Source: Sedimentisphaerales bacterium (GTDB lineage Bacteria; Planctomycetota; Phycisphaerae; Sedimentisphaerales; SM23-30). From it: DNA of 64,000 bases. The translations under genes were made by a program, and so were the position numbers. Where the stretch lies: the NCBI GenBank assembly GCA_963666285.1, contig OY762711.1, one strand, 5' to 3'. Each line of letters begins with the position of its first letter. The first letter of the stretch is position 1. The notes below the pieces were generated by a model. That model had not been told where the DNA came from. It did not search any database and saw only the letters and a program-made list of their open reading frames with translations. Below, one piece after another: positions 1 to 23,233 of this stretch.

Positions 1-308
1 GTCAGGCTATCGACAGTTTCGTCTTCGATATAGTAAACCCAAGTCAGACGTTTACCGAGGTCGCCGAAAGAATAAACGACTTCATCCTGAATTTCAAAGT
101 TTGTTGTGCCAATGTTAGCAGCATCAAAGCTGTTTAACATATTGACAAATGACCCGTCAGCGGCAGCAGCAAACGCAGCAGCTTCCCAAGGGGCATAATC
201 AGATGAGCCATAAACGTTTGGCGCGGCATCGACAAAAATATTTGCCTGATTTGCCATTGTGACCGAACTAACAAAAGCCAGCAGTAGAATTGCGAGTAGT
301 TTCTTCAT
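1..308 (-). CDS. Secreted protein, 5' part only (runs off window)
   Basis: Manual translation from ATG at 308: MKKLLAILLLAFVSSVTMANQANIFVDAAPNVYGSSDY..., open to window edge; signal peptide; AAGGAGAGG RBS upstream. Confidence 0.8.
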   Translation of the reverse strand, partial: MKKLLAILLLAFVSSVTMANQANIFVDAAPNVYGSSDYAPWEAAAFAAAADGSFVNMLNSFDAANIGTTNFEIQDEVVYSFGDLGKRLTWVYYIEDETVDSL

Positions 309-700: not shown

Positions 701-870
701 AAAAACAGCGCAGTTTTGCATAGGGAGAAAACAGAAAATCAGAAAAATTTTAAAATTATATTTTCATTATTTCAAGCTAGTTACAGAATTTCGGGTTGGT
801 TGAAAAAGTAAAAAAATCAGCGCGATTTTTGCATGTCGTCCAAGAGTGTATGGAAAACCAAAAATAAGAA
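701..870 (+). promoter_or_regulatory. Putative promoter/operator element upstream of portal gene (copy 1)
   Basis: Two AAAA(W)CAGCGC..TTTT boxes (701-720, 811-833) followed by TCCAA; aligns without gaps to 41920-42089. Confidence 0.6.
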
Positions 871-913: not shown

Positions 914-2398
914 ATGAGAATGAGTTATGAATTTGATATTTTTGAAGGAGGCCTGGATGAAGGTTATGTCGAATGGCTGACGGGCGACGAATACATTTCT
1001 CGGGCGATCAGATTTGAGAAGTTATGGAATTATTATGAGAATCCGACTACCACATCAATAGCGGGCAATAATTCAGGGTCAGGCCGGACATATCAGCAAT
1101 GGCAGGAATATGGATTGCCGCTGCGTATAACCGGTATCAGCCGCAGCTTCTGGGGCGGTTTAGAAAGTGGTGAGAATAACGGCAGGATAGCTCGCAAGGA
1201 AGTTGTAGTCGAGAACGATATCGCCTGGCGAATCGATACGATAGTAGATTTTCTATTTGGCAGGAAGTTTTCGATAACCTCTCGGGCAAGTGATCCAGAC
1301 CGGGCCGGCGAGATCGAGCGAGTTTTGAACGCGATATTTGAAGCAAACGGCGGTATGCAATTTTTTCAGCAACTGGCACTGATGGGCAGTATCTATGGTT
1401 TTGTTGATGTAATAGTCCGGACTGATAAGCTGTTTGCCGAACAGCAAGAGATATCAACAAGTTTGGAAAGATGTGCAGATAAGGTGGTACTGGAAATAAT
1501 AGAGCCGGTAAGGAGTTTGCCTGTATTGAATGAGAATGATTATCGTCGGATAGAATATTATATCCAGCATTATTATAAACAGCATAACGAGCTGGGGCAA
1601 AGCACGGTCGGTGGGATAGGGACGGTTGATGGAAGGGGAAATGTCGGCAGCGGTCCGAGAGAAAGTAGATGTGTGGAGATAATCTCGGACCAATACTGGC
1701 AGCGATACGAGGACGGCGATCTGACGGCACAGGGAAGAAATGTTTTGGGATGTATGCCCATCGTGCATATTCAGAATCTGCCGATCCCGTATCGTTATGA
1801 AGGCAAGAGTGACGTAGAGCCGCTGGTGCCGTTGCAGGATGAGCTGAATACGCGTTTGAGCGATCGAGCAAGCCGGATAACAATGCAGAGTTTTAAGATG
1901 TACCTTGCAAAGGGGATAAGTAACTTTGACCAGCTGGATATCGGGCCTGGTACAATGTGGAATACAGAGAACCCAAACGCAGCGGTAGAGGAGTTTGGCG
2001 GAGACGAATCGTGTCCATCGGAGGCAGAGCACATAAGCCAGGTACGTGACGCTTTGGAGAAGTCGAGCGGTGTGGCTGCTATTGCTGCTGGAATGTTAAG
2101 AGGTCGTATTGGTAATCTCACAAGTGCGGTTGCATTGAAAATAACACTTATGGGTATACTGGCAAAGAACCAGAGAAAGCGTATGTGTTATGGCAAAGGG
2201 ATAGCCGAGATGTCAAAACTGATTTTAGATGCATTAACGAAAAGCGGTGTGTTTGAAACAGATCCATCAGAGCGTGAGATTGATATTCACTGGCCGAATC
2301 CACTGCCGGAAAATGTAACGGAGATTCTGCAGGAAGCGAAGATGAAAATGGAACTTGGTATTGATAAGGAGCAGGTGTTGAAGGAGCTTGGATATTGA
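914..2398 (+). CDS. Phage portal protein (SPP1 gp6-like)
   Basis: 494 aa; VDFLFG, PIVHIQN, GKSDVEPLVPLQDELN, IHWPNPLPEN motifs typical of gp6-like portals; AAGGAG RBS. Confidence 0.85.
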   Translation: MRMSYEFDIFEGGLDEGYVEWLTGDEYISRAIRFEKLWNYYENPTTTSIAGNNSGSGRTYQQWQEYGLPLRITGISRSFWGGLESGENNGRIARKEVVVENDIAWRIDTIVDFLFGRKFSITSRASDPDRAGEIERVLNAIFEANGGMQFFQQLALMGSIYGFVDVIVRTDKLFAEQQEISTSLERCADKVVLEIIEPVRSLPVLNENDYRRIEYYIQHYYKQHNELGQSTVGGIGTVDGRGNVGSGPRESRCVEIISDQYWQRYEDGDLTAQGRNVLGCMPIVHIQNLPIPYRYEGKSDVEPLVPLQDELNTRLSDRASRITMQSFKMYLAKGISNFDQLDIGPGTMWNTENPNAAVEEFGGDESCPSEAEHISQVRDALEKSSGVAAIAAGMLRGRIGNLTSAVALKITLMGILAKNQRKRMCYGKGIAEMSKLILDALTKSGVFETDPSEREIDIHWPNPLPENVTEILQEAKMKMELGIDKEQVLKELGY

Positions 2399-2504
2399 TT
2401 TGGGCTTTATCAGAATCAAAGAGAGTAGAGATAAGCCGGTAGTAAAGGGGAATTATGTTAATATGAAGTATGCTTCGTGAGTAGTAAGGTTTTACAGTTA
2501 ATAT

Positions 2505-2672
2505 TTAAGGCAACCTTTGGAAATTCATTTTGAGCGACAAGTTTTTCTTTTGCCTGCTGACATGTGTCACATAAAACAGTGAATATAGCCCAATATGCAC
2601 GATTTTATGTTTCTTGTCAGCAACCAAATTTTGAGCTATCGCGTCAAAAGCAATTTCCAGAGGTCACCTTAA
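2505..2672. ncRNA. Long rod-shaped RNA structure between portal and scaffold genes (candidate ncRNA or cis element)
   Basis: Nested complementary segments 2505-10/2667-72, 2513-25/2652-64, 2528-33/2644-49, 2534-37/2639-42, 2555-62/2615-22, 2569-76/2603-10. Confidence 0.55.
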
Positions 2673-2688
2673 GGAAAGGAATTTAGTT

Positions 2689-3117
2689 ATGGAAGAAGAA
2701 ATTGATAGTGTAGTCGGTGATGTTGGTTCATCAGATGTTGATGACAGCTTACAGGAGCTGGAAGGAATGAAAGAGGCCCTGGCAGAGGTTCAAGCAGAGT
2801 TGGATAAGGTTCGTTTTGAAAAGTCACTTGCAGTAGAACTTACTCGTGCCGGGGCGATAGATGTAGAAGCGGCGATAAAATTAGCCGGGGAAGGAGAAGA
2901 AGTGAAAGAGATTGTTGATTCGCTTAGAAATAGCAAGCCGTATTTGTTTGATCGAAAAGTAGTAGGTGAGATAGGCGGCGCGATAACAGCGAGTGTAAAA
3001 GTTCGTAAGAGTGTCGGGCTGGATAAGCTAAGTGAAGCAGCTAAGAGGGCGAAAAAGACCGGCAGACGCCGTGACCTCTTTGAATATCTCAAGCTACGTA
3101 GAAGTCTGAGAAAGTGA
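2689..3117 (+). CDS. Phage capsid scaffolding protein (GP20-like)
   Basis: Acidic N-terminus, coiled coil, AGAIDVEAAIKL and SKPYLF motifs, basic C-terminal helix; lies between portal and capsid genes. Confidence 0.75.
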   Translation: MEEEIDSVVGDVGSSDVDDSLQELEGMKEALAEVQAELDKVRFEKSLAVELTRAGAIDVEAAIKLAGEGEEVKEIVDSLRNSKPYLFDRKVVGEIGGAITASVKVRKSVGLDKLSEAAKRAKKTGRRRDLFEYLKLRRSLRK

Positions 3118-3160
3118 CAAGCATAGGTCTCTCAAAGTTATATTAAACAAGTTATGGTTT

Positions 3161-4587
3161 GTAAACTTTCGCACTTTTTGAGGGTTAAAATTTGAAAATA
3201 TAAACAAAAAAATATCGGCGATCCGATGTCTTTAATGATTGATAACAATAGGACACGGAGGCCGATATGTACTATCAATATTATTCGACATGGACGCAAT
3301 TTATTCAACAATTTTTTCCAATTTTTACAGAGCCGGGGGCACAAATCTTCTGCCGGGTGGTAATTGGTTGGATATTGTGCACTACTCGCCGCACGATAAC
3401 AGGCATAATACCCTACGCAGACCCGCTGGGCGAACGAGCTCACGATGCATATCATCGTTTCTTTCCAGATTGCCGCTGGTCTCTGAGCCGGATGTGGAAG
3501 ATGCTCACCCTGATTATGGTTCAAAGATTCTGTCCCAAAGGAACAATCACTCTGTCCATGGACGACACCCTGTTTCATCGAAGCGGTCCAAAAGTCCATG
3601 GAGCCGGATTCTGGAGAGATGCCGTTCGTTCTACCAAGAAAAGAATAGTATATGCCTGGGGTTTGAATTTGGTAGTAACGTGTCTGCAAATTCAACCATC
3701 TTGGGGTGGCGAACCTCTGGCACTGCCGGTCAATATGCGGTTGCATCGCAAAGGAGAAGAATCCTTGATTGAACTGGCGGTACAAATCATTAATGAAATA
3801 TGCCAATGGCTTCCAAACAGGCGTATAAGGCTTGTAGCAGACGGGTTTTATGCTACTCTGGCTGGAAAGAATCTTGAGAATGTTACCATTATCTCTCGAA
3901 TCAGGCGTAATGCCGATCTGTTTGAGCTGCCGCCTAAAGTTAAAGAGAAAACCCGTGGCAGACCTCGCTGTAGAGGGCAAAAACTGGCTAAGTTGGAAAA
4001 AATGGCTGCCCATATCAGAAATTGGAGAACAGTTGAGTTTAGTCAGAGAGGTACGATTATTGAAAGGCTGGTTTATACTCGTATTGCTCTCTGGTATAAG
4101 GTAACTCGCAAACCAATCCTTGTTGTTATATGTAGAGACCCTGAAGGTAAGGAAAAAGATGACTTTTTCTTTACGACAGATATTACTATGGCGCCTGAGG
4201 AAGTTTTGACCTGTTATGCCGATCGCTGGGCTATTGAAGATACGTTCAAGAACACTAAACAGCTGCTCGGTGTTCAACAGCTGCAGACATATAAGGGCAA
4301 AGGACCAGAAAGAGCCGCTGGTCTTGGACTCTGGCTGTACTCGATGGTCTGGTTGAGGTATCTGACCAAGAAACCCAATGAACAATACTTCTTTGTTCAG
4401 CCATGGTATCAACACAAAGAGACTCCGAGCTTCGCCGATGCTATCGCTGACCTCCGAAGGGAACTTTGGAGTGAAAGAATTAAATATATGTTCGGTAATT
4501 CGGCCGTTCATGATAAAAAATATACGTTTCTGCTGGATGCTCTGGCTCCAGCGGCTTAAATACACTATAAAAAATGCGAAAGTTTAC
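3161..4587 (+). mobile_element. Insertion sequence, IS701-like, 1427 bp
   Basis: Terminal IRs GTAAACTTTCGCA(C/T)TTTT; 5-bp target duplication GGTTT at 3156-3160 and 4588-4592. Confidence 0.9.
3267..4559 (+). CDS. DDE transposase (IS701-like)
   Basis: SMDDT, VADGFY, YADRWAIEDTFKNTKQ DDE signature; fills the IR-bounded element. Confidence 0.9.
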   Translation: MYYQYYSTWTQFIQQFFPIFTEPGAQIFCRVVIGWILCTTRRTITGIIPYADPLGERAHDAYHRFFPDCRWSLSRMWKMLTLIMVQRFCPKGTITLSMDDTLFHRSGPKVHGAGFWRDAVRSTKKRIVYAWGLNLVVTCLQIQPSWGGEPLALPVNMRLHRKGEESLIELAVQIINEICQWLPNRRIRLVADGFYATLAGKNLENVTIISRIRRNADLFELPPKVKEKTRGRPRCRGQKLAKLEKMAAHIRNWRTVEFSQRGTIIERLVYTRIALWYKVTRKPILVVICRDPEGKEKDDFFFTTDITMAPEEVLTCYADRWAIEDTFKNTKQLLGVQQLQTYKGKGPERAAGLGLWLYSMVWLRYLTKKPNEQYFFVQPWYQHKETPSFADAIADLRRELWSERIKYMFGNSAVHDKKYTFLLDALAPAA

Positions 4588-4627
4588 GGTTTTAAAATTA
4601 GATAAAATATAAGGAAGGAAATAAAAA

Positions 4628-5782
4628 ATGAGTTTTACAGGAAAAGCAACTTATTCGGCCGGCGTTGAATTGCCGGAATTGTGTGAAGATGTATCAGATA
4701 TTGTTGGTATTGTGTCGCCGTATGAAACTCCGCTGCTGGACTTGCTGGGCGATCCCGGACGTGACGCGATAAGTGTTTATCATGAATGGCTGGAAGATTC
4801 TTTATTGAGCAACAGGGGTGTGATTAATGATGACAATATTGTTGCTCCCGAGGCGGAAATTATGTTTGCTGTTGATGACGGCAGCAAATTCAGAGTTGGT
4901 GATCAGATCCAGGTAGAAGGCAGTAGTGAGTTGATACTGGTCACCGGCGTTAGCGTCAACACTTTGACAGTAGCTCGCGGTTATTCCGGTACCACTGCAG
5001 AAGCGATAGCAGATGGTGACGTGATTAATATTCTGGGTAATGCGGCACTGGAAGGTGGTGAAAAAGGTGAGGCGCGATTTACCAATCGTTTGCGAAAGGG
5101 CAACTATACCCAGATTTTGTCAGCTGCGGTTGAAGTATCCGGAAGTGACATGTCAGCGAATCAGCTGGGCCTGGCAAATGAGATGGACTATCAGAAGCAG
5201 GAACGTCTGCGTGAGCTGCTCAGAGACCTAGAGAACATCGTAATTAACGGCGGACAGGCGGCATCTAATCCGCAGGGCAGCAGTTCCGTTCGCCGCACAA
5301 TGAACGGTATCGTAAAACAGATAACAACAAATGCGTACAAGGTTGGCGATAGCGGATTGCCGTCAGGTGATACACTGGACGAGGCAAAGCTGAACTATGT
5401 ATTACGCAGTATCTGGGAGAGTAGTAATGCCGGGATAGACACAATAGTTGTAAACGGATACCAGAAGCGTCAGATCAATTCTCTCCTGGACGGTTCCCGT
5501 ATATATAATAGTGAGGACCGCAAATACAGTTCGCTGGTGAGTTATTATGAAAGTGACTTTGGTTTGTGTCGAGTTGTTCTGAGCCGATGGGTGCCAAGAG
5601 ATATGGTACTGTTTCTCGATAGTTCCCGTATTAATGTATTGCCTTTAGCGGGCAGGAGTTTTCACTTTAAGCCGCTGGCAAGTACCGGCGACTATGAGTG
5701 CGGTCAGCTAATAGGAGAATATACACTTGAGTTCAAGAATGAGCAGGCCCACGGATATCTAAGAGGATTGACGGTCAGCTGA
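4628..5782 (+). CDS. Major capsid protein (SU10/DUF5309-type, HK97-like)
   Basis: EDVSDIV..VSPYETP, HEWLED, NYTQI, RRTMNGI, YESDFG, IGEYTLEFKNEQAHG motifs; follows portal and scaffold; strong RBS. Confidence 0.85.
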   Translation: MSFTGKATYSAGVELPELCEDVSDIVGIVSPYETPLLDLLGDPGRDAISVYHEWLEDSLLSNRGVINDDNIVAPEAEIMFAVDDGSKFRVGDQIQVEGSSELILVTGVSVNTLTVARGYSGTTAEAIADGDVINILGNAALEGGEKGEARFTNRLRKGNYTQILSAAVEVSGSDMSANQLGLANEMDYQKQERLRELLRDLENIVINGGQAASNPQGSSSVRRTMNGIVKQITTNAYKVGDSGLPSGDTLDEAKLNYVLRSIWESSNAGIDTIVVNGYQKRQINSLLDGSRIYNSEDRKYSSLVSYYESDFGLCRVVLSRWVPRDMVLFLDSSRINVLPLAGRSFHFKPLASTGDYECGQLIGEYTLEFKNEQAHGYLRGLTVS

Positions 5783-5807
5783 TAGCTTAAACTGGAAGTG
5801 GAAGTTA

Positions 5808-5852
5808 GTGGTGTTCGCCTTGTCTGTTGTTTTGCCGGTGAGGCGGCACCGC
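5808..5852 (+). terminator. Stem-loop after capsid gene (partial terminator or mRNA stabiliser)
   Basis: GTGGTGTTCGCCTT...GAGGCGGCACCGC pairs with G-U on + strand; no strong U tract. Confidence 0.45.
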
Positions 5853-5877
5853 AATATTTATAACAAAGGAAAATAAA

Positions 5878-6510
5878 ATGAGATTATGTAATGATATCGA
5901 TATATGTAAGTGGGAGTCGGCGTTGTATTCGGACGCAGTCAGTTCGGATAGGTATGTCTGTTCCGGTAACGGCGGCGTTATTTCAGGCGGCCAGTTTAGT
6001 GTGACCGGGATAGACTTTTTACAATCCGGAGTGGAGCCGGGTTTTATGCTTCGCTGCTGGAATGAGCTGGCGATGGTTGAGTTATGTTGTGAGATAGTGG
6101 AGGTTCAATCGAGCGTCAGTTTGTCAGTTTCATCAGTTCGGCCAAGCGGTGTAACCGAACTATGGCCGCCGGGCGATTACAGCAATTTGAATTTTGCGGT
6201 TATTTCGTATTCCCCGGTGATAGATGAGGTGAGTTATAGTATTATGTCTCGTTTGCGTGAGATAAATTCGATCGATGATCTGGTTGAAAGCAGGTCGCTC
6301 AGACTGCAATGTGTATTTTTGGTGATAGCATCGGTTTATGCGTCGATAGCAAAGACATCGGACGACGACTTTTACTGGCACAAGTCTGAGTATTATCGCA
6401 AGCAGTATGATATGGAGCAGAGCAGGTTCGCAGCAGATATTGATACCGATGGTGACGGTGAAATTGACAGGACTATATGTGGTAATATTATATCTCTGAA
6501 GCGGAAATGA
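5878..6510 (+). CDS. Putative head-completion / head-tail adaptor-like protein
   Basis: Directly after capsid gene; helical C-half with YWHKSEYY and terminal DIDTDGDGEID motif reminiscent of phage adaptor proteins; AAGGA RBS. Confidence 0.5.
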   Translation: MRLCNDIDICKWESALYSDAVSSDRYVCSGNGGVISGGQFSVTGIDFLQSGVEPGFMLRCWNELAMVELCCEIVEVQSSVSLSVSSVRPSGVTELWPPGDYSNLNFAVISYSPVIDEVSYSIMSRLREINSIDDLVESRSLRLQCVFLVIASVYASIAKTSDDDFYWHKSEYYRKQYDMEQSRFAADIDTDGDGEIDRTICGNIISLKRK

Positions 6511-6549: not shown

Positions 6550-7458
6550 ATGGCTTTGACAAGCGCAAAAATTAAAGAACTGGCATATGAACAAGGTTTT
6601 GTTCTGGCCGGAATAGCGTCAGCAGCAGCAGTTGAGGATCTGGCTGCTGACAGGCTGGTTGAATATATTAACGGTGAACAAAATGCGGGGATGGGATACC
6701 TGGCCAGAAATCTTGAAAAGCGATTAGATGTAACAAGGCTGGTTGATGGTGCCAGGAGTGTGATATGCTGTGCGGTAAGTTATAATAATGTAAATGAAGA
6801 TGTAAATGATGAGCTGTTATATATTGCAAGGTATGCCAGGTTTGGCGATTATCATAATTCGATAAAACGCAGGCTGCGAAAGATGGTAGAGTTAATTGAG
6901 CAGTATTGTGACAGTCGACCCTATACCAGGGTATTTGTTGATACTGCGCCTCTGCTGGAAAAATATTATGCGGTGAAAGCCGGGCTAGGCTGGCAGGGGA
7001 AAAACACTCTTTTGCTGAATAAGGATTATGGCTCCAGGCTGCTGCTGGGAGAGATAGTAATTGACATCGAGCTGGAATATGATGAGCCGGTAGAGACAGG
7101 TTGTGGAGATTGTGAACTTTGTATTCGGGAATGTCCGGGCGGTGCTTTGCTGGACGGAGGAAAGCTGGATTGCAAAAAATGCATATCGTATCATACGATA
7201 GAGTCAAAAGAATTGATACCGGACGATATTGCCGAGCAGATCGGCAACCGTATTTTTGGATGTGACAGCTGCCAGGATATTTGTCCGTACAATATTAATG
7301 CAAAATTGAATACAGACCCGGAGTTTATGGATCGTTTTGTCGGAATTTCAAAAGGTGAACTGGCAACAATGAGTGAAAAAGAGTTTGTTAATCGTTTTGG
7401 TGATACGCCGATATTGCGTGCAGGTTTAGCCAGGTTAAAAATGATAGCGGGAATTTGA
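6550..7458 (+). CDS. queG: tRNA epoxyqueuosine(34) reductase
   Basis: IARYA..DYH, VDTAPLLE, GWQGKN, CGDCELCIRECP, CISYHTIE, FGCDSCQDICP; start moved to ATG 6550. Confidence 0.95.
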   Translation: MALTSAKIKELAYEQGFVLAGIASAAAVEDLAADRLVEYINGEQNAGMGYLARNLEKRLDVTRLVDGARSVICCAVSYNNVNEDVNDELLYIARYARFGDYHNSIKRRLRKMVELIEQYCDSRPYTRVFVDTAPLLEKYYAVKAGLGWQGKNTLLLNKDYGSRLLLGEIVIDIELEYDEPVETGCGDCELCIRECPGGALLDGGKLDCKKCISYHTIESKELIPDDIAEQIGNRIFGCDSCQDICPYNINAKLNTDPEFMDRFVGISKGELATMSEKEFVNRFGDTPILRAGLARLKMIAGI

Positions 7459-12126: not shown

Positions 12127-12834
12127 ATGAGAAATTTAATTGCTATTTTGGCTGTATTGGCTATGGGCGTAAGTGCTATGGCAGATGTAACTTGGGTAGA
12201 AGATAATACTACTGCAAAAACATCTGTAATGACATGGACATCATCAGAACCTCTGGCAGGTATGGCACTGGAACTGGCTGTTGCTGATGGTACAAGTTTG
12301 ACATCGGTTGCTATGACTGGTTTCAATGTATTTATCGACCAGGCTTACAGCACACCAGGTTTCACAACTCTGGAATCTGTTAACACAAATCCTGCAGCTA
12401 ATGCTGACGCTCCAGGCGCTATCACAGATCTGACAGGCACTTTCGCAGTTTGCGGCGGCAGCCTGACTGAAGATCACGCCGGTGTTTCTACCGGTACTAT
12501 CGTTCTGACAGCAGATGTTAGCACTACAGTTGATATCACTGCTGACGAAACACGTGGTGGTGCTGTTGCTATGGGTGGCGCTGCTGTTGCAGTAACTCCA
12601 GTTACAGCTACAATTACAGCTGGTCCGACATGTTGGAGTTATGAATACTTCACAAGCGGTGACGCTGATGGTGATGGCGATGTTGACACTGATGACTGGC
12701 CAATCTTCCGTGATGCATTTGGTACAGCTGAAGGTGATGCTGCTTATAATCCATGTGCTGACTTTGATAAAGATGGTGATGTTGACACTGATGACTGGCC
12801 AACATTCCGTGATAACTTTGGTAAGACTTTCTAA
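12127..12834 (+). CDS. Secreted protein with C-terminal dockerin-like domain (copy A)
   Basis: Signal peptide; beta-rich domain; two Ca-binding repeats DADGDGDVDTDDW and DFDKDGDVDTDDW. Confidence 0.85.
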   Translation: MRNLIAILAVLAMGVSAMADVTWVEDNTTAKTSVMTWTSSEPLAGMALELAVADGTSLTSVAMTGFNVFIDQAYSTPGFTTLESVNTNPAANADAPGAITDLTGTFAVCGGSLTEDHAGVSTGTIVLTADVSTTVDITADETRGGAVAMGGAAVAVTPVTATITAGPTCWSYEYFTSGDADGDGDVDTDDWPIFRDAFGTAEGDAAYNPCADFDKDGDVDTDDWPTFRDNFGKTF

Positions 12835-12926
12835 TTTTTGTTAATTAGTAGTTGTTAAATTTTGTAAATTTGTAAATCAATTTAATTAAGACGTTTTATT
12901 TAACTTAATTTCTAAGGAGAAATGTT

Positions 12927-13544
12927 ATGAAGAAGTTTTTTGCTTTTGTTTTGGTTATGGCTATGTCTACAGTAGTATTTGCTAGTGCAGCAAATCCAGT
13001 AGTAAGCCTTGTAATTCCTGGTGAAACAGCAGTTGATGGTATTTACACATTGCCTGCAGGCGTGTATGACGTTGAATTGGTAGTAGGAAGAAATGCTTAT
13101 ATGTATGGCGAAACTCCTTATCCAGCATTCGATGGATACCAGGTATCAAGTATTGCTGCTAGCATGGAAACAACCAACTGTTCTCTTCAGATTACTGATG
13201 ATGGCCTTCCATTCACAACAGACGTTATCATGTATGGTGATGGAGTAGCACCTGGTGCTAATAACAGCTTAAGCCTGATTCAGGCAGTATCTCTGTCTGA
13301 TATGGGTCCAGATTTCGTTATCGCTTACAACTTCCAGGTTGTATACGATGGCGTTGGAACAGCAGTAGTTGATCTGGGTCTTGTTGGTACATCACAATAT
13401 CGTGCTGCTGCTGCTAGCACAGGTGCTGGTTACGAAGGCATGATTGAAGCAAGTCTGGGCGACTTGGTAATCGTTCCAGAGCCAATGACAATGTCTCTGC
13501 TGGGTCTTGGCGGCCTGGTAGCAGTTCGTCGTCGTCGTGCTTAA
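12927..13544 (+). CDS. PEP-CTERM sorting-domain protein (copy A)
   Basis: Signal peptide; C-terminal VPEPMTMSLLGLGGLVAVRRRRA. Confidence 0.92.
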   Translation: MKKFFAFVLVMAMSTVVFASAANPVVSLVIPGETAVDGIYTLPAGVYDVELVVGRNAYMYGETPYPAFDGYQVSSIAASMETTNCSLQITDDGLPFTTDVIMYGDGVAPGANNSLSLIQAVSLSDMGPDFVIAYNFQVVYDGVGTAVVDLGLVGTSQYRAAAASTGAGYEGMIEASLGDLVIVPEPMTMSLLGLGGLVAVRRRRA

Positions 13545-13605
13545 TTTAAGCTGACAAATGATGGCTATAGCCAAAAGTATCTTATAGATACTTAAAAAAA
13601 CAATT

Positions 13606-13642
13606 AACGGCGTGGTTCGTAGTATGATCCACGCCGTTTTTT
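13606..13642 (+). terminator. Intrinsic terminator
   Basis: AACGGCGTGG/CCACGCCGTT stem plus T-run. Confidence 0.8.
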
Positions 13643-13896
13643 ATTTTAAAATATGATATGGTCCATAACTGTCTAATTGCCTTACGGCGTGTTTGCGTGA
13701 TCTGTGGACATAATATTAACTGGAATTGTGTTGTTATTAGGTTGCTGATTTGGTAAATTAAATATTGAGTGACGGCTGTGCAGCCAAAAAAAGTGTAAAG
13801 ATTGTGTAGTCGCTGTCGCTCGCGTTATCAATTTGGTTTCAACATAATATAAATTGTTTGTTTAATTTGAGTTTCTTTTCTATAAGGAGTGTTAGA

Positions 13897-14604
13897 ATGG
13901 GTAAAATGCTGATTTCTCTATTTGTATTGGCTATGAGTGTATGTGCGTTTGCGGATGTTACCTGGTCTGAGGATAATAGTACTGCAGGTACTTCAATTAT
14001 AACCTGGACATCTTCTGAGCCGCTGGCCGGCCTGGCACTGGAACTGACAGTTATGAGTGGCGAATTGGATTCTGTTGAAATGACCGGTTTTAATGTATAT
14101 ATTGATCAGGCTTACAGTACACCGGGATTTACAAATCTTGAAGAAGTAAACACCAACCCGGCAGCTAATGCTGATGCACCGGGAGATATAACTGATCTGA
14201 CTGGCAAATTCACGATATGCGGCGGCAGCCTGACAGAAGACCATGCCGGTGTTTCAACTGGGACAATTACTTTGACAGCTTCAGTTGAAATAACAGTTGA
14301 TATTGTTGCTGACGAAACTCGTGGTGGGGCAGTTTCTATTGGAGGTGAATCTGTAGATGTAATTCCGGTTACAGCTACAATAGCTGTTATTTTGGAATCT
14401 TGCTGGAATTATCCATACTTCACAAATGGTGATGCAGATGGTGATGGCGATGTTGACACAGATGACTGGCCGATCTTCCGTGACGCATTTGGTACAGCGG
14501 AAGGAGATGCTGCTTACAGTCCATGTGCTGATTTCGACAAAGATGGTGATGTTGACACGGATGACTGGCCAACATTCCGTGATAACTTTGGTAAAAGTTT
14601 CTAA
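13897..14604 (+). CDS. Secreted protein with C-terminal dockerin-like domain (copy B)
   Basis: Paralog of 12127-12834; AAGGAG RBS before ATG 13897. Confidence 0.85.
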   Translation: MGKMLISLFVLAMSVCAFADVTWSEDNSTAGTSIITWTSSEPLAGLALELTVMSGELDSVEMTGFNVYIDQAYSTPGFTNLEEVNTNPAANADAPGDITDLTGKFTICGGSLTEDHAGVSTGTITLTASVEITVDIVADETRGGAVSIGGESVDVIPVTATIAVILESCWNYPYFTNGDADGDGDVDTDDWPIFRDAFGTAEGDAAYSPCADFDKDGDVDTDDWPTFRDNFGKSF

Positions 14605-14647
14605 TTAACGACTTATTATATTATTGATTTTTAAGGAGATTATGGTT

Positions 14648-15274
14648 ATGAAGAATTTTTTTGCTTTTGTTTTTGTTATGACTATGTCTACAATAGCATT
14701 TGCTCATGCAGCATATCCAGTTGTAAGTCTTGAAATTACAGGTGAAACAGCTGAAGCCGATGGGTGGTATTATTTTGGAGCGGGTGTTTATGATCTTGAA
14801 CTTGTAGTAGGCAGAAATTCATATGTGTATGGCGAAACTCCTTATCCGGCATTTGATGGATATCAGGTATCAAGTCTTGCTATAAATATTACAACATCTA
14901 ACTGCTATCTTCAGGTGACAGATGATGGTTTGGATTTTACCGAAGATGTTATCAAATATGGTGCAGGTGTTACTGCCGGTGTTAATAATAGTTTGGAATT
15001 GATTCAGGCGGTATCTCTATCGGATATGGGGCCAGGCTTTGTTATAGCTTATAATTTCCAGCTTGTATGGGATGGTATTGGGCTGCCTCTTGTAGATATG
15101 AGTCTTGCCGGCCTTTCTGAATATCGTGAATATTCTAAAGGTACGGGTGCTGAATATATTGCTATGACAGAAGACTGCCTTGGTGACTTGATAGTCATAC
15201 CTGAGCCAATGACCATGTTTATGCTGGGCTTTGGCGGGTTGTTAGCATTACGTCGGCGACGACAGTATAAATAA
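14648..15274 (+). CDS. PEP-CTERM sorting-domain protein (copy B)
   Basis: Paralog of 12927-13544; IPEPMTMFMLGFGGLLALRRRRQYK. Confidence 0.92.
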   Translation: MKNFFAFVFVMTMSTIAFAHAAYPVVSLEITGETAEADGWYYFGAGVYDLELVVGRNSYVYGETPYPAFDGYQVSSLAINITTSNCYLQVTDDGLDFTEDVIKYGAGVTAGVNNSLELIQAVSLSDMGPGFVIAYNFQLVWDGIGLPLVDMSLAGLSEYREYSKGTGAEYIAMTEDCLGDLIVIPEPMTMFMLGFGGLLALRRRRQYK

Positions 15275-19099: not shown

Positions 19100-19411
19100 T
19101 AAATAGAGTGAATCATTCAGTATTACTGATTTAGGTGTTGCAGAATTGTAAATAATACAAGAGGTTAGACAAGAGATGTGCCAAATAGAATATTTACACT
19201 TACTTAATAAAAAGCTAATAAAAAAGTAGTATAATTATTACAATTATACGATTACGGGTGAAGGCAGGGTGTTTATGTGTTTAACATGATAGCTAATATT
19301 GTATTGATTAAATTGCACTTCCATCGATAATGGATTTATTCGAATTAGCGGTACAAGTAATTTAGAAAAGCAGTGTATTATAGAGAATCAAATATATTTG
19401 GAGTAGATATA

Positions 19412-22400
19412 ATGTTAAAAAAAATAATTATATTAATATTTATTATATTTTTTATCAATCAGGTTTCAGCTTTTGTAAAAGCTCAAGTGGTTTCAATAGA
19501 GCTTCCGGGTCAAGCTACTGAAGCTGATGGCTCGTACAATTTGTCGGCAGGAACTTATGATGCTCAGATAGTATTAAATAGAAATCCGTATATATTTAAT
19601 GGCACTGCCTACCCTGGTTATGATGGATACCGGCTATCTAGTCTTGCGATTAAATTGGCAATTACAAATGGATCAATGCAGATTACTGATGATGGTCTGC
19701 CTTTTACCACGGATCAATTGAAATATGCTTCTGGTTTAACATCTGGAGCCAGTAATAGTCTTTCATTGATACAATGTGTTGCTTTGTCTGATGTGGCTCC
19801 TGGCACCGTTTTGGTGTATAATTTTCAGATAGTCTACAGTGGAGTAGGCACTCTTCAAGTTGACTTGTCACTTTCAGGGACCTCTGAGTATAGAATTGCT
19901 CATGCTGATACAGGTGCTGATTATCTGTCGATGTCAGAGGAGGATTTAGGTGATTTAATAATTAAAGATCCAGATGCTGGAAACACCCCTCCTACTATTA
20001 CCTCCGGTAACGGCGATACGGCTACCGTAAGTGTTTCTGAAAACCAGGCTGCGGTAACAACAGTTGAGGCTACAGACCTTGACGGTGATACAGTAACATA
20101 TTCCATAAGCGGCGGTGATGATGCCGGGAAATTTTCGATAGGCGGCAGCAGCGGCGTATTGACATTTATTTCTGCCCCGAACCATGAGCAGCCTGCAGAC
20201 AGCAACAGTGATAATGTATATATAGTTGAGGTAACGGCAGCTGACGGCAATGAAGGCTCTGACACCCAGACCATAAGCGTGACCGTGGATAATGTCAACG
20301 AGCCGCCCGTTATTACCAGTAATGGCGGCGGGGCTACTGCCGCTATCAGCGTGGACGACGGTCAGGTAGGTGTTACTACTGTCGCGGCGACCGATGAAGA
20401 TGGTGACACGATAACATATACGGTAACCGGCGGTGCAGATCAGTATATGTTTATAATTAACAGTTCAAGCGGCGAAATGAAGTTCAGTATTGTGCCGGAT
20501 TATAATTTCCCTGCCGATGACGGTGAGGATAATGTATACGATGTCGAGGTTACTGTAAGCGACGGCAATGGCGGCAGCGATATTCAGACTATAAGCGTGG
20601 CAATAGCACAATTGAGTTCGGTGCCGAGTATCAAATCTGATGGCGGCGGTGAAACAGCAGCAGTTACTGTGGAAGAGGCCCAGACAGCGGTTACAACCAT
20701 TCAGGCAGCAGATATTGACGGCGATGTAATCACATATTCGATATCCGGCGGTGATGATGCCGCTTTGTTTGAAATAGATTCTGCGACAGGTGAGCTGACT
20801 TTTGCCGGTGCCCCCGATTTCGAACAGCCCTCAGACAGCAACAGTGATAATATTTATGTTGTCGAAGTTACCGCGACCGATAAAGATGGGTCTGACAGCC
20901 AGACGATCAGTATTACTGTTACTGATGTCGATGACACAATCAGGATAACCAGCGACGGCGGCGGCAAAACTGCCGATGTAACAGCAGCAGAAAATCAGAT
21001 CGCGGTTACTACCGTTACTGCAATCGAAAATGACGGCGATGTAATCACATATTCAATCTCCGGTGGCGATGATGCCGGGTTCTTTGCTATTGATTCTGCA
21101 AGCGGTGTATTGACCTTCACTTCGGAGCCGGATTATGAAAACCCCGGCGATAGTAACGGTGATAATATTTATGTTGTTATTGTTGCTGCTGCGGATAAGG
21201 ATGCAAGTACCAGCCAGACTATAAATGTTACTATTAGCAATGTTGACGACTCGCCGATAATTACCAGTAACGGCGGCGGCGATTCTGCATCTGTAAATAT
21301 ATTGGAAAATCAGACCGCAGTTACAACTGTGAAGGCTACTGCCCAGGGCGGTGGCCTGCAGTATAGTATTTCCGGCGGTGCCGATTCCGGCTTGTTTTCC
21401 ATTGATGCAGATAGCGGCGTTTTGACATTAAACATTGCCCCGGATTACGAGTCTCCCTCAGATGGTGACAGTGATAATATTTATATTGTCCAGGTTTCGG
21501 CAACAAATCTCGACGGTTCAGACAGTCAGTCAGTTGCTGTTTTGGTGATGAATGTTAACGAGTCGCCAGAGATAACAAGTGGCGGCGGCGGTTCGGCGGC
21601 AAATGTAAGCTGCCTGGAGAATAATGTCGGTGTAACAACTGTAACCGCTATTGATATAGACAGCAGTGTTCTTTCATATTTGATCACCGGCGGAGCAGAT
21701 GCATCTTTGTTTGCTGTAAATAGTACTAGCGGCCTTTTGACTTTCACTTCGGCACCGGATTATGAAAATCCGTCAGATAGTAATGGTGATAATGTTTATG
21801 TTGTAGTAGTTTCGGTTATGGATATCGGAGGTCTAACTGACAGTCAGACAATCAATATCCAGGTAAGCGATTCTAATGATCCGGCTGTTATTATCAGTAA
21901 TGGCGGCGGTGATACTGCAAGGGTATACATTGAAGAGAGGATCGCCGAGGTAACAAAAGTTGTGGCAACCGATCAGGATGGCGATACTGTTTCTTATTCA
22001 ATCACCGGTGGCGAAGATTCGTCTGCCTTTATGATTGGTGGCGGCGGAGAATTATATTTTATTTCTGCTCCCGAATATCTGACACCTTACGACAGCGATG
22101 GTGATAATGTTTATGTTGTTGACGTTTCTGTTTCAGATGGCAGCGGCGGAACTGATACCCAGACTATCAGGGTAGTCATTGGCGATGCGATTGAGCCTGA
22201 AGATGCTGTTGAGCTGGATTTGCAGGTTCATAAGAAAAGTGAAGGTCTGGGTACGTTGTCATATAGCGGTAGATTGGAAATTGGCCGCGTGATTACTGTT
22301 ATTGCAGTTCCGGCAAGTGGCTACAGGGTCAAAAGCTGGAGCGGTACCGATGGTAAGGAAGCTGTAAATGAGCAGGCTGTAACTCTAAAGAAAAATCAGC

Positions 22401-23233
22401 ACAAGGTTGTTGTCCAGTTCGAGGAAGTGCCGGTTCAAAAGGTAATAAGTGCCAAATTCCAGGCCGGTAAAACACGAAGTCTTCATGATGACAGTTTCGA
22501 TATCCATGGGATTCTTGGCGCCGGTGCCGACCATATTCCTGATAGCGATGCAGTTGTAAAAGTGGAGGTTTTGGATTCCGATGGAAATACTATTTTTAGC
22601 CAGAGTATCGATTACAATGATAGTAGTTTTAGTAATAAATGGCCAAAGAGTATCATCTACAAAGACAAAAGTATAGTTCAGGGTAAGCTAAACTATTTCC
22701 AATATGATATTAACAAAGGTAAATTCCGCCTTTCCGCCAAGGGCCAGGATCTTACCGGTTGGGTTGCACCGTTATCTTTATCAATCGACATTGGCGATTA
22801 TGCCGCCTTTATGATTCTTTATGACCAGGGAACAAACGATACGATAAACGGTAAAAAATATATGCCGAGGCAGTTTATGTTTGGCAGTACTGCCAGTCTT
22901 ACGGTTGACTCTCAAAAGATAAAGACAGCAAAAGACGGCACTCAGAGCGGGAAAGTTTCCGGGCGATTTAGTTCATCTATCAATCCGCTTGAACATACTC
23001 TTACTTCTGCTGAAATCCTGATTGGTGATTATAGTCAGATTCTTACCCTGGAAAAGCATGCCAAAAAAGACAGGTATATGTATAAGCGATCCAAAGATGC
23101 TGATCCTGATGTCCAGTATATTGATAAAGCTACATTTGATGTCGATAAAGCGGAATTTGTGATCTCGTTTAAGAATGCAGATTTTGATATAGATCAGGAA
23201 ACTTTTGGCATTACATTTGGATGGGATGAATAA
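19412..23233 (+). CDS. Large secreted adhesin with 7 cadherin-like repeats
   Basis: Signal peptide; N-domain homologous to PEP-CTERM proteins; 7 repeats with YSISGG.D...F.I....G.LTF...PDYE.P.DS..DN.Y.V.V; C-region homologous to 15926-17449. Confidence 0.9.
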   Translation: MLKKIIILIFIIFFINQVSAFVKAQVVSIELPGQATEADGSYNLSAGTYDAQIVLNRNPYIFNGTAYPGYDGYRLSSLAIKLAITNGSMQITDDGLPFTTDQLKYASGLTSGASNSLSLIQCVALSDVAPGTVLVYNFQIVYSGVGTLQVDLSLSGTSEYRIAHADTGADYLSMSEEDLGDLIIKDPDAGNTPPTITSGNGDTATVSVSENQAAVTTVEATDLDGDTVTYSISGGDDAGKFSIGGSSGVLTFISAPNHEQPADSNSDNVYIVEVTAADGNEGSDTQTISVTVDNVNEPPVITSNGGGATAAISVDDGQVGVTTVAATDEDGDTITYTVTGGADQYMFIINSSSGEMKFSIVPDYNFPADDGEDNVYDVEVTVSDGNGGSDIQTISVAIAQLSSVPSIKSDGGGETAAVTVEEAQTAVTTIQAADIDGDVITYSISGGDDAALFEIDSATGELTFAGAPDFEQPSDSNSDNIYVVEVTATDKDGSDSQTISITVTDVDDTIRITSDGGGKTADVTAAENQIAVTTVTAIENDGDVITYSISGGDDAGFFAIDSASGVLTFTSEPDYENPGDSNGDNIYVVIVAAADKDASTSQTINVTISNVDDSPIITSNGGGDSASVNILENQTAVTTVKATAQGGGLQYSISGGADSGLFSIDADSGVLTLNIAPDYESPSDGDSDNIYIVQVSATNLDGSDSQSVAVLVMNVNESPEITSGGGGSAANVSCLENNVGVTTVTAIDIDSSVLSYLITGGADASLFAVNSTSGLLTFTSAPDYENPSDSNGDNVYVVVVSVMDIGGLTDSQTINIQVSDSNDPAVIISNGGGDTARVYIEERIAEVTKVVATDQDGDTVSYSITGGEDSSAFMIGGGGELYFISAPEYLTPYDSDGDNVYVVDVSVSDGSGGTDTQTIRVVIGDAIEPEDAVELDLQVHKKSEGLGTLSYSGRLEIGRVITVIAVPASGYRVKSWSGTDGKEAVNEQAVTLKKNQHKVVVQFEEVPVQKVISAKFQAGKTRSLHDDSFDIHGILGAGADHIPDSDAVVKVEVLDSDGNTIFSQSIDYNDSSFSNKWPKSIIYKDKSIVQGKLNYFQYDINKGKFRLSAKGQDLTGWVAPLSLSIDIGDYAAFMILYDQGTNDTINGKKYMPRQFMFGSTASLTVDSQKIKTAKDGTQSGKVSGRFSSSINPLEHTLTSAEILIGDYSQILTLEKHAKKDRYMYKRSKDADPDVQYIDKATFDVDKAEFVISFKNADFDIDQETFGITFGWDE

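Follow-up and report, generated by a model that had tools for sequence, protein, structure and literature searches.

A candidate gene transfer agent-like viriform, apparently undescribed and here tail-less, encoded at two chromosomal loci of a Sedimentisphaerales bacterium

Gene transfer agents (GTAs) are, in the defining passages of PMC9662315, particles that encapsidate mostly random host DNA, do not fully package their own genome and deliver the DNA to other cells. Phage-inducible chromosomal islands that form capsids (cf-PICIs) appear, in the cited portions of a report on tail piracy (bioRxiv 10.1101/2025.02.11.637232), as self-packaging mobile islands of 10-18 kb with a recombinase and a replication module, for which tail-less filled heads are a described state, and encapsulins are presented in the cited part of PMC8987985 as standalone shells for protein cargo. 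Here we analyzed a window of 64,000 nucleotides (the whole stretch of DNA, G000:C1:64001-128000) from contig OY762711.1 of a Sedimentisphaerales bacterium, whose genome is denoted G000 and whose genus mates are G001 and G003. The window contains a phage-type head operon among host genes. We propose, with a probability of about 0.58, that it is the head operon of a vertically inherited system whose terminase and repressor switch lie elsewhere on the chromosome and which packages host DNA in a GTA-like manner.

The head operon and an unlinked terminase operon

Four intact, co-oriented open reading frames (ORFs) on the plus strand, each preceded by a purine-rich ribosome-binding site, make up the head operon (C1:64.9-70.5 kb), which is flanked by host genes; a first-pass annotation, made from the letters of the window, had described them in the same positions as a stand-alone phage head module. 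The first ORF (914-2398, 494 aa) encodes an SPP1 gp6-like portal protein (PF05133, E 3e-24, over the cut-off; phrog_64, E 9e-29), which is the sole PF05133 match in the genome and shares 43-67% identity with 26 orthologs. It is followed by a scaffolding protein of 142 aa (2689-3117; PF06810, E 7e-7, below the cut-off; phrog_194, E 2e-4), an ortholog of which is present in 79 of the 80 related GTDB capsid loci that were used for gene-order and flank counts. The major capsid protein (4628-5782, 384 aa) belongs to the SU10_MCP family (PF17236, E 7e-82; phrog_1328), its profile matches include the solved phage capsids 9ny2, 9in6 and 7z45, and it has what we take to be the HK97 fold, probably with an inserted beta-rich domain at about residues 60-140. 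For the last gene, ORF4 (5878-6510, 210 aa), searches of Pfam and PHROG returned no family match; it stands directly after the capsid gene in 77 of the 80 loci (78 matches, two of them in one locus). Its AlphaFold model (pLDDT 90) consists of a helical core, an inserted beta-barrel and a C-terminal strand, and a Foldseek search against the PDB gave nothing at E<=0.001, the weak matches being restricted to the inserted barrel. Position and modeled topology together suggest that ORF4 is a head-completion adaptor.

Since the module starts only 914 bp from the edge of the window, so that its left side had been out of sight of the first reading, we listed the 30 kb to the left as well; the ORFs there are host genes by inspection, and no terminase was found among them. 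The genome as a whole holds two genes for a large terminase subunit (TerL), one in a Mu-like prophage and the other among host genes at C1:5592979-5594415, and the latter is the orphan terminase whose existence the first-pass annotation had suspected. It is part of an operon outside the window (G000:C1:5592979-5598102; L053:4980-10103) that forms the second half of the system and encodes TerL (478 aa), a small terminase subunit (TerS, 140 aa), a GNAT protein (174 aa), an ABC ATPase (199 aa) and a sigma/Q-like protein (139 aa), TerL standing behind the four other co-oriented genes. A divergent XRE-S24 (CI-like) repressor of 257 aa belongs to the same operon, with two operator-like palindromes between it and the sigma/Q-like gene. 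The Walker A lysine, the Walker B glutamate and the nuclease aspartates of TerL are conserved in a 20-row alignment, by which its catalytic residues are judged intact, and 4 of 13 orthologs of the 140-aa product encoded before TerL match phage TerS profiles (best phrog_2538, E 3e-11). Around 20 TerL loci, the repressor was found at 12, the sigma/Q-like gene at 13, and the ABC and GNAT genes at 14 each. Linkage in relatives ties the two halves into one system: the regulator end of the terminase operon divergently adjoins the portal gene in 13 of the 80 GTDB loci, and in seven same-class genomes (G026, G127, G274, G289, G295, G311 and G321) TerL is on the strand of the capsid gene, 10-25 kb upstream of it. 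In this genome the two loci are at least 0.6 Mb apart on C1, so that a single head would probably be unable to hold the two.

The other terminase, at C1:5.296 Mb, was dropped as a partner because it belongs to the Mu-like prophage, which has its own portal, protease, capsid and TerS, and a search of the genome with PF04466 gave 0 matches. This prophage (G000:C1:~5279500-5316300) carries its own head genes and a transposase; its head and hub-like genes are at one end, and its tube-, tape-measure- and F7-like ORFs are at the other, on the other strand. A related Mu-like prophage is present in G003 and G020. Contigs C2, C3 and C4 of the assembly are three related podovirus-like genomes of 65-66 kb, with 77-82% nucleotide identity over kilobase stretches and ORFs of 3717-5491 aa (labels by inspection). 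A ParB-like gene occurs in the terminase operon of at least 7 of 20 relatives and is absent in G000.

The boundaries of the head operon also agree with the first-pass annotation. On the left, a divergent host gene for a secreted protein (1-308, minus strand) is represented by its 5' part and runs past the window edge; it has a homolog in the same place in G003, with a weak PEP-CTERM match (E 0.013). On the right, host queG (6550-7458, plus strand; PF08331, PF13484) starts with an ATG 39 bp after ORF4, and in G003 one lipoprotein gene (family F8) sits between the two. An insertion sequence (IS; 3161-4587, plus strand), with a DDE_5 transposase at 3267-4559 (PF13546), lies between the scaffold and capsid genes and is not part of the system; it is recent, with 6 further copies at 99.9-100% identity in C1 and an empty site in both genus mates. 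The remaining ORFs of the window look by inspection like host genes and transposases, the family scan having covered 8 window ORFs. In a profile search, rows naming TAL effectors were disregarded, as they contained no passing stretch. At 12127-15274 and 19373-23233 lie tandem pairs of genes for secreted proteins, whose products have PEP-CTERM-like tails and acidic motifs that recur at the C terminus.

Inheritance and constraint across the class

A capsid match was found in 32 of 41 relatives (18 of the 22 that are at least 90% complete), with identities of 61-74% and every one of the order's 8 families represented, and it was the single match in 31 of the 32 positive genomes; the orphan TerL was present in 34 of the 41 (21 of the 22 near-complete ones). 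In a sample of the phylum, 41 of 301 genomes carried the capsid, 26 of 29 belonging to the same class, which was taken as Phycisphaerae, and 15 of 272 lying outside it; TerL was likewise found in 26 of the 29 same-class genomes. A GTDB pattern scan puts the number of such stretches at an estimated ~1100. The nearest viral capsids are distant, at 42% identity in IMG/VR (7 loci) and 32% for the best match in cultured phages, and a tree built from 36 capsids placed the IMG/VR record L300 and the 20 same-class sequences together in one clade (support 100/99), with the other five viral rows outside.

Trees of 28 genomes were compared with that of RpoB, the one marker on which the host tree rests: the capsid tree had 16 of 25 splits in common with it (shuffled-label maximum 2) and the TerL tree 19 of 25 (shuffled-label maximum 4). 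The capsid tree groups family f8 with this bacterium's own genus, and the RpoB grouping was not rejected (approximately unbiased test, AU p 0.27). Both proteins are under purifying selection as judged by dN/dS, which lay at 0.06-0.24 in the capsid (12 pairs, 6 of them unsaturated) and at 0.08-0.21 in TerL (12 pairs, 5 of them unsaturated). Between G000 and G003, where synonymous sites are saturated, the portal is 63% identical, while scaffold, ORF4, TerS and the regulators are at 33-47%; the repressor is 72% identical in the gene-pair comparison.

The near single-copy presence, the conserved gene order, the broad congruence with the host tree and the low dN/dS are what the first-pass annotation had expected of a retained module, and no close phage relative was found; neither patchiness in relatives, nor incongruence, nor a dN/dS near 1, which it had named as grounds for rejection, was observed. 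We consider it very probable that these are domesticated, vertically inherited phage-derived genes, rather than a decaying prophage.

Outside the class, in family f54 and others, there is a sister system (L106-L109, L141, L145, L146, L148). In 6 genomes of f54 it comprises a portal, a scaffold, a capsid of about 50% identity, an adaptor and three large genes without known function, and in 3 of the 5 loci read an ABC-GNAT fusion and a different TerL occur at an unlinked locus. It possibly represents a parallel or older domestication.

A predicted switch, missing tails and competing explanations

Of 26 relatives, 21 have a palindrome of the type TGTTA-N10-TAACA upstream of the sigma/Q-like gene, and an operator matrix built without G000 ranked this genome's own site (predicted operator, C1:5597066-87, between the repressor and the sigma/Q-like gene) first in the 6.15 Mb of C1, with 23.1 bits and a second site 85 bp away. 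The repressor keeps an Ala-Gly cleavage site and a Ser-Lys pair, motifs whose presumed roles point to self-cleavage on a RecA signal. Upstream of the portal gene lies a putative late-promoter element (825-848, plus strand), which a fixed-width matrix missed and for which a two-block motif was needed; this motif was present in 44 of 63 relatives (shuffle maximum 9 bits), and a sigma-70 scan gave no plus-strand site before the portal gene. The motif was not consistently present upstream of the terminase-operon genes, and a genome scan with it pointed to no further component. We infer that the repressor binds the operator palindrome and that the sigma/Q-like protein acts on the portal motif.

In the mechanism that we propose, stress would lift repression, the CI-like repressor on the palindrome before the sigma/Q-like gene cleaving itself on a RecA signal, and the head promoter would then be activated by the sigma/Q-like protein. 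A prohead would assemble from portal, scaffold and capsid, no protease being involved, and TerS and TerL would fill it with DNA, which should be chromosomal since no replication gene is there to amplify the system. The ABC-GNAT pair may acylate the packaged DNA (a GNAT coupled to an ABC ATPase is, in the cited part of PMC7824862, a predicted phage DNA-modification system), and ORF4 would close the portal. The cell, then, likely builds its own DNA-filled capsids. In lineages with tail-tip genes, delivery of the DNA would fall to a very short appendage without a tube; in this genome, from which tail-tip and lysis-like genes are absent, the heads would either function tail-less or depend for tails and lysis on phages in the same cell, as tail-less cf-PICI heads do in the cited portions of 10.1101/2025.02.11.637232, the Mu-like prophage and the three podovirus-like contigs being at hand.

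A set of conserved genes follows ORF4 in many relatives, namely the families F7, F9, F10, a variable slot, F17, F11, F18, F16 and F8. Of the 80 loci, 53 have F9, F10 or F11, 18 lack them although the locus extends to F16 or F8, and the other 9 are not long enough to tell, which leaves 71 informative ones; F10 occurs in 14 of the 41 relatives, and some absences of the tail tip come from fragmented assemblies. The variable slot holds tail-spike-like and virion-protein-like genes. F7, F9, F10, F11 and F8 have homologs in Mu-like and related tailed phages, at only 22-30% homology, and among 34 viral loci that contain an F11 homolog, 15 show the order tube, tape measure, F7, F11, usually followed by F9, which puts F7 in the place of the distal tail protein and F11 in that of the hub. 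Weak profile and atlas matches agree with these positions: F11 lies near unnamed viral clusters and F7 near P2 GpU and DNA_circ_N at 0.92-0.93 (leads only), and F7 matched a 121-aa ORF of the prophage with a probability of 15% (E 0.002). Position thus suggests that F7 is distal-tail-like and F11 hub-like. F16 has one membrane segment and a coiled coil, and F8 is a lipoprotein whose prophage homolog stands just before the terminase genes; from weak matches, both look like lysis helpers.

Lineage-specific profiles did not find F7, F10, F16 or F18 in this genome and gave only a marginal match for F9; those of F8 and F11 matched the Mu-like prophage, and that of F17 was excluded because of fused host domains. 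PF10145 and PF04984 gave 0 matches in this genome, and both also missed the tube-like and tape-measure-like ORFs of the Mu-like prophage, so that they are insensitive here and the profiles made for the lineage test this better; PF10145 gave 2 weak matches below the cut-off in 5 genomes that have tail tips. The unlinked tail that the first-pass annotation had envisaged was accordingly not found in this genome; relatives keep their tail-like genes within the cluster.

Several observations weigh against the proposal that the system packages and transfers host DNA. Particle formation, cargo and delivery are predictions from the gene content. The domesticated clusters examined contain no tube or tape-measure gene, no endolysin was identified for the system, and this genome has no tail-tip genes, which makes delivery doubtful without a helper; the tail tip is also missing in 18 of the 71 informative loci, and F16 and F8 are missing from the head locus here, the genus mates G003 and G001 keeping F8. 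The matches of TerS orthologs to phage TerS profiles begin at position 1-3, and one ortholog fits helix-turn-helix families, so that the N-terminal part is apparently kept and packaging may be sequence-directed, unlike in RcGTA of Rhodobacter capsulatus, whose TerS (gp1) is described in the cited part of PMC6854486 as lacking the DNA-binding domain at its N terminus. The IS inside the head operon may be polar on capsid expression, and the portal site of this genome is only a moderate match to its motif (15.5 bits, the spacer being shorter by 1 nt); 32 sites in C1 reach such a score, so that it does not stand out in the genome. The regulators and the ABC and GNAT proteins are less constrained (dN/dS 0.39-0.53 between G000 and G003, a range that also covers scaffold, ORF4 and TerS where measurable), and the capsid evolves at 1.34 times the RpoB rate where the tail tip is absent, vs 0.94 times elsewhere, in kin that are not independent. 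Finally, 4 of 52 carriers (G020, G289, G321, G331) have a broken capsid gene, and the complete genome G041 has the TerL operon and no capsid match, so the system is dispensable. The break-ups differ: the gene is split by an inversion in G321, by ~39 kb in G331 and by a 492-aa ORF in G020, and in G289 only 47 aa of it remain and TerL contains a stop.

More tentatively, and as a reading that we think less likely than not, several lineages may have lost the tail independently of one another and keep capsid, terminase and switch under selection as a host-owned type of particle, in which DNA-filled, tail-less capsids either pirate the tails of co-resident phages and so transfer host genes, or trap parts of invading phages.

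Of the competing explanations, anti-phage interference, in which infection would trigger the switch and the tail-less heads, as dead-end particles, would sequester phage DNA, tails or packaging proteins, is unlikely and yet has the most to recommend it. On the RpoB tree, with 25 genomes scored, the tail tip switches state 6 times, and the TerL rate is unaffected by it (2.24 vs 2.41 times RpoB); the complete genomes G001, G003, G031 and G037 keep head and TerL without delivery or lysis genes; and this genome carries the Mu-like prophage and the three podovirus-like contigs. However, the 53 of 71 loci that keep a tail tip, with tail-spike-like genes in the variable slot, fit delivery to cells, and the flanks listed show no defence-island context, no defence library having been searched.

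That the operon is a vestige in this genome, a slowly decaying relic of a functional ancestor after loss of tail tip and lysis genes, we regard as rather improbable. The IS, the loss of F8 and F16, a capsid about 40% faster in tail-less lineages and the broken carriers would fit such decay, but all 11 examined ORFs of both operons are open, the tail-less families f6 and f8 keep their genes intact, and the capsid is still 73% identical to that of G003 in spite of the saturated synonymous sites, above queG (55%), a SpoIID-like gene (58%) and a TPR gene (70%). A portal-bearing, encapsulin-like protein compartment without nucleic-acid cargo is very unlikely: a tail-less state in several lineages and a capsid conserved near the RpoB level speak for it, whereas a TerL with intact catalytic residues and TerS co-occur and co-diverge with the capsid, and no cargo enzyme is conserved next to it. 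A mobile prophage, capsid-forming satellite or recent remnant is largely refuted, for although the genes are of phage type with a CI-like switch and an IMG/VR 'provirus' record (G336) has the cluster beside an integrase, a helicase and a TerS, the system is near single-copy, class-wide, RpoB-congruent and spread over two loci, integrase matches occur in the flanks of 1 of the 80 loci (126 flank proteins scanned, being 121 representatives of 276 clusters and 5 small ones), only 3 of 60 loci hold a tRNA or tmRNA and the 64-kb window holds neither, and the G336 capsid nests in the cellular clade, 85% identical to that of G036, in a record without TerL.

In G336 itself (L334, L335, L300), the cluster, with a portal ORF shortened to 388 aa, directly adjoins an integrative element that carries an integrase, type I restriction genes, a DnaB-like helicase and a TerS-like ORF (labels by inspection); in this one case the element might be a satellite using this head. 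Virus catalogues can thus list such clusters as proviruses.

Relation to known systems

We know of few independent GTA lineages. None from Planctomycetota is named in the cited parts of the GTA papers, and our literature searches found no description of this system, with one search swamped by general phage papers and subscription journals mostly outside their reach. The candidate is best described as a class-wide, apparently undescribed GTA-like viriform, tail-less in this genome. Its span over the class, its predicted on-switch, with a cleavable repressor and a mapped operator, and its sister lineages with and without a tail tip amount to a natural experiment, in which the question of what selection keeps domesticated capsids, be it gene transfer, defence or something else, becomes testable.

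With GTAs such as RcGTA (as characterized in the cited passages of PMC9662315) the system has in common (i) a Caudoviricete-derived portal, capsid and terminase, here the portal, scaffold, capsid, TerL and TerS families, (ii) endogenization at several loci, here C1:64.9-70.5 kb and C1:5.593-5.598 Mb, (iii) mostly vertical inheritance with a host-like tree, here seen in the splits common with RpoB (16/25 and 19/25), the AU p of 0.27 and the class clade at 100/99, and (iv) the absence of replication or integration genes. Features (i) to (iii) are three of the six by which GTAs are defined there. It differs from RcGTA in its SU10_MCP capsid, SPP1-like portal, scaffold and lack of a protease, a gene set that suggests independent domestication, as judged without a direct comparison with the RcGTA proteins. 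Further differences are a cluster without tube or tape measure, and in this genome without a tail tip, the retained phage-type repressor switch and ABC-GNAT pair, and a TerS that seems to keep the N-terminal part reported missing from RcGTA gp1 (cited part of PMC6854486).

The likeness to cf-PICIs, as these are portrayed in the cited portions of 10.1101/2025.02.11.637232, lies in a packaging module without a complete tail or lytic genes, which here consists of capsid, portal, putative adaptor, TerS and TerL. Unlike those islands, the system has no integrase or recombinase and no replication module beside either operon in this genome, occupies two chromosomal loci, is inherited vertically and has one head-completion gene; a protease, a connector and an HNH gene were not found at either locus. 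A prophage would have contiguous modules and be patchy in relatives, as is the Mu-like prophage, whose tube-like gene is present in 3 of the 41; here the modules are split and the distribution is class-wide. Tailed phages of the Mu-like and related kinds, both in this genome and in IMG/VR, share homologs of the accessory genes with the relatives' clusters; their capsid, portal, protease and TerL, however, are unrelated ones of their own, to which tube, tape measure and transposase are added. Encapsulins resemble the system as chromosomal phage-type shells kept by the host, and differ from it in that the shell here has a portal and a scaffold next to it, co-occurs with an intact terminase and is accompanied by no conserved cargo gene. 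If the proposal for the tail-less lineages is true, such host particles would differ from known GTAs, satellites and encapsulins alike.

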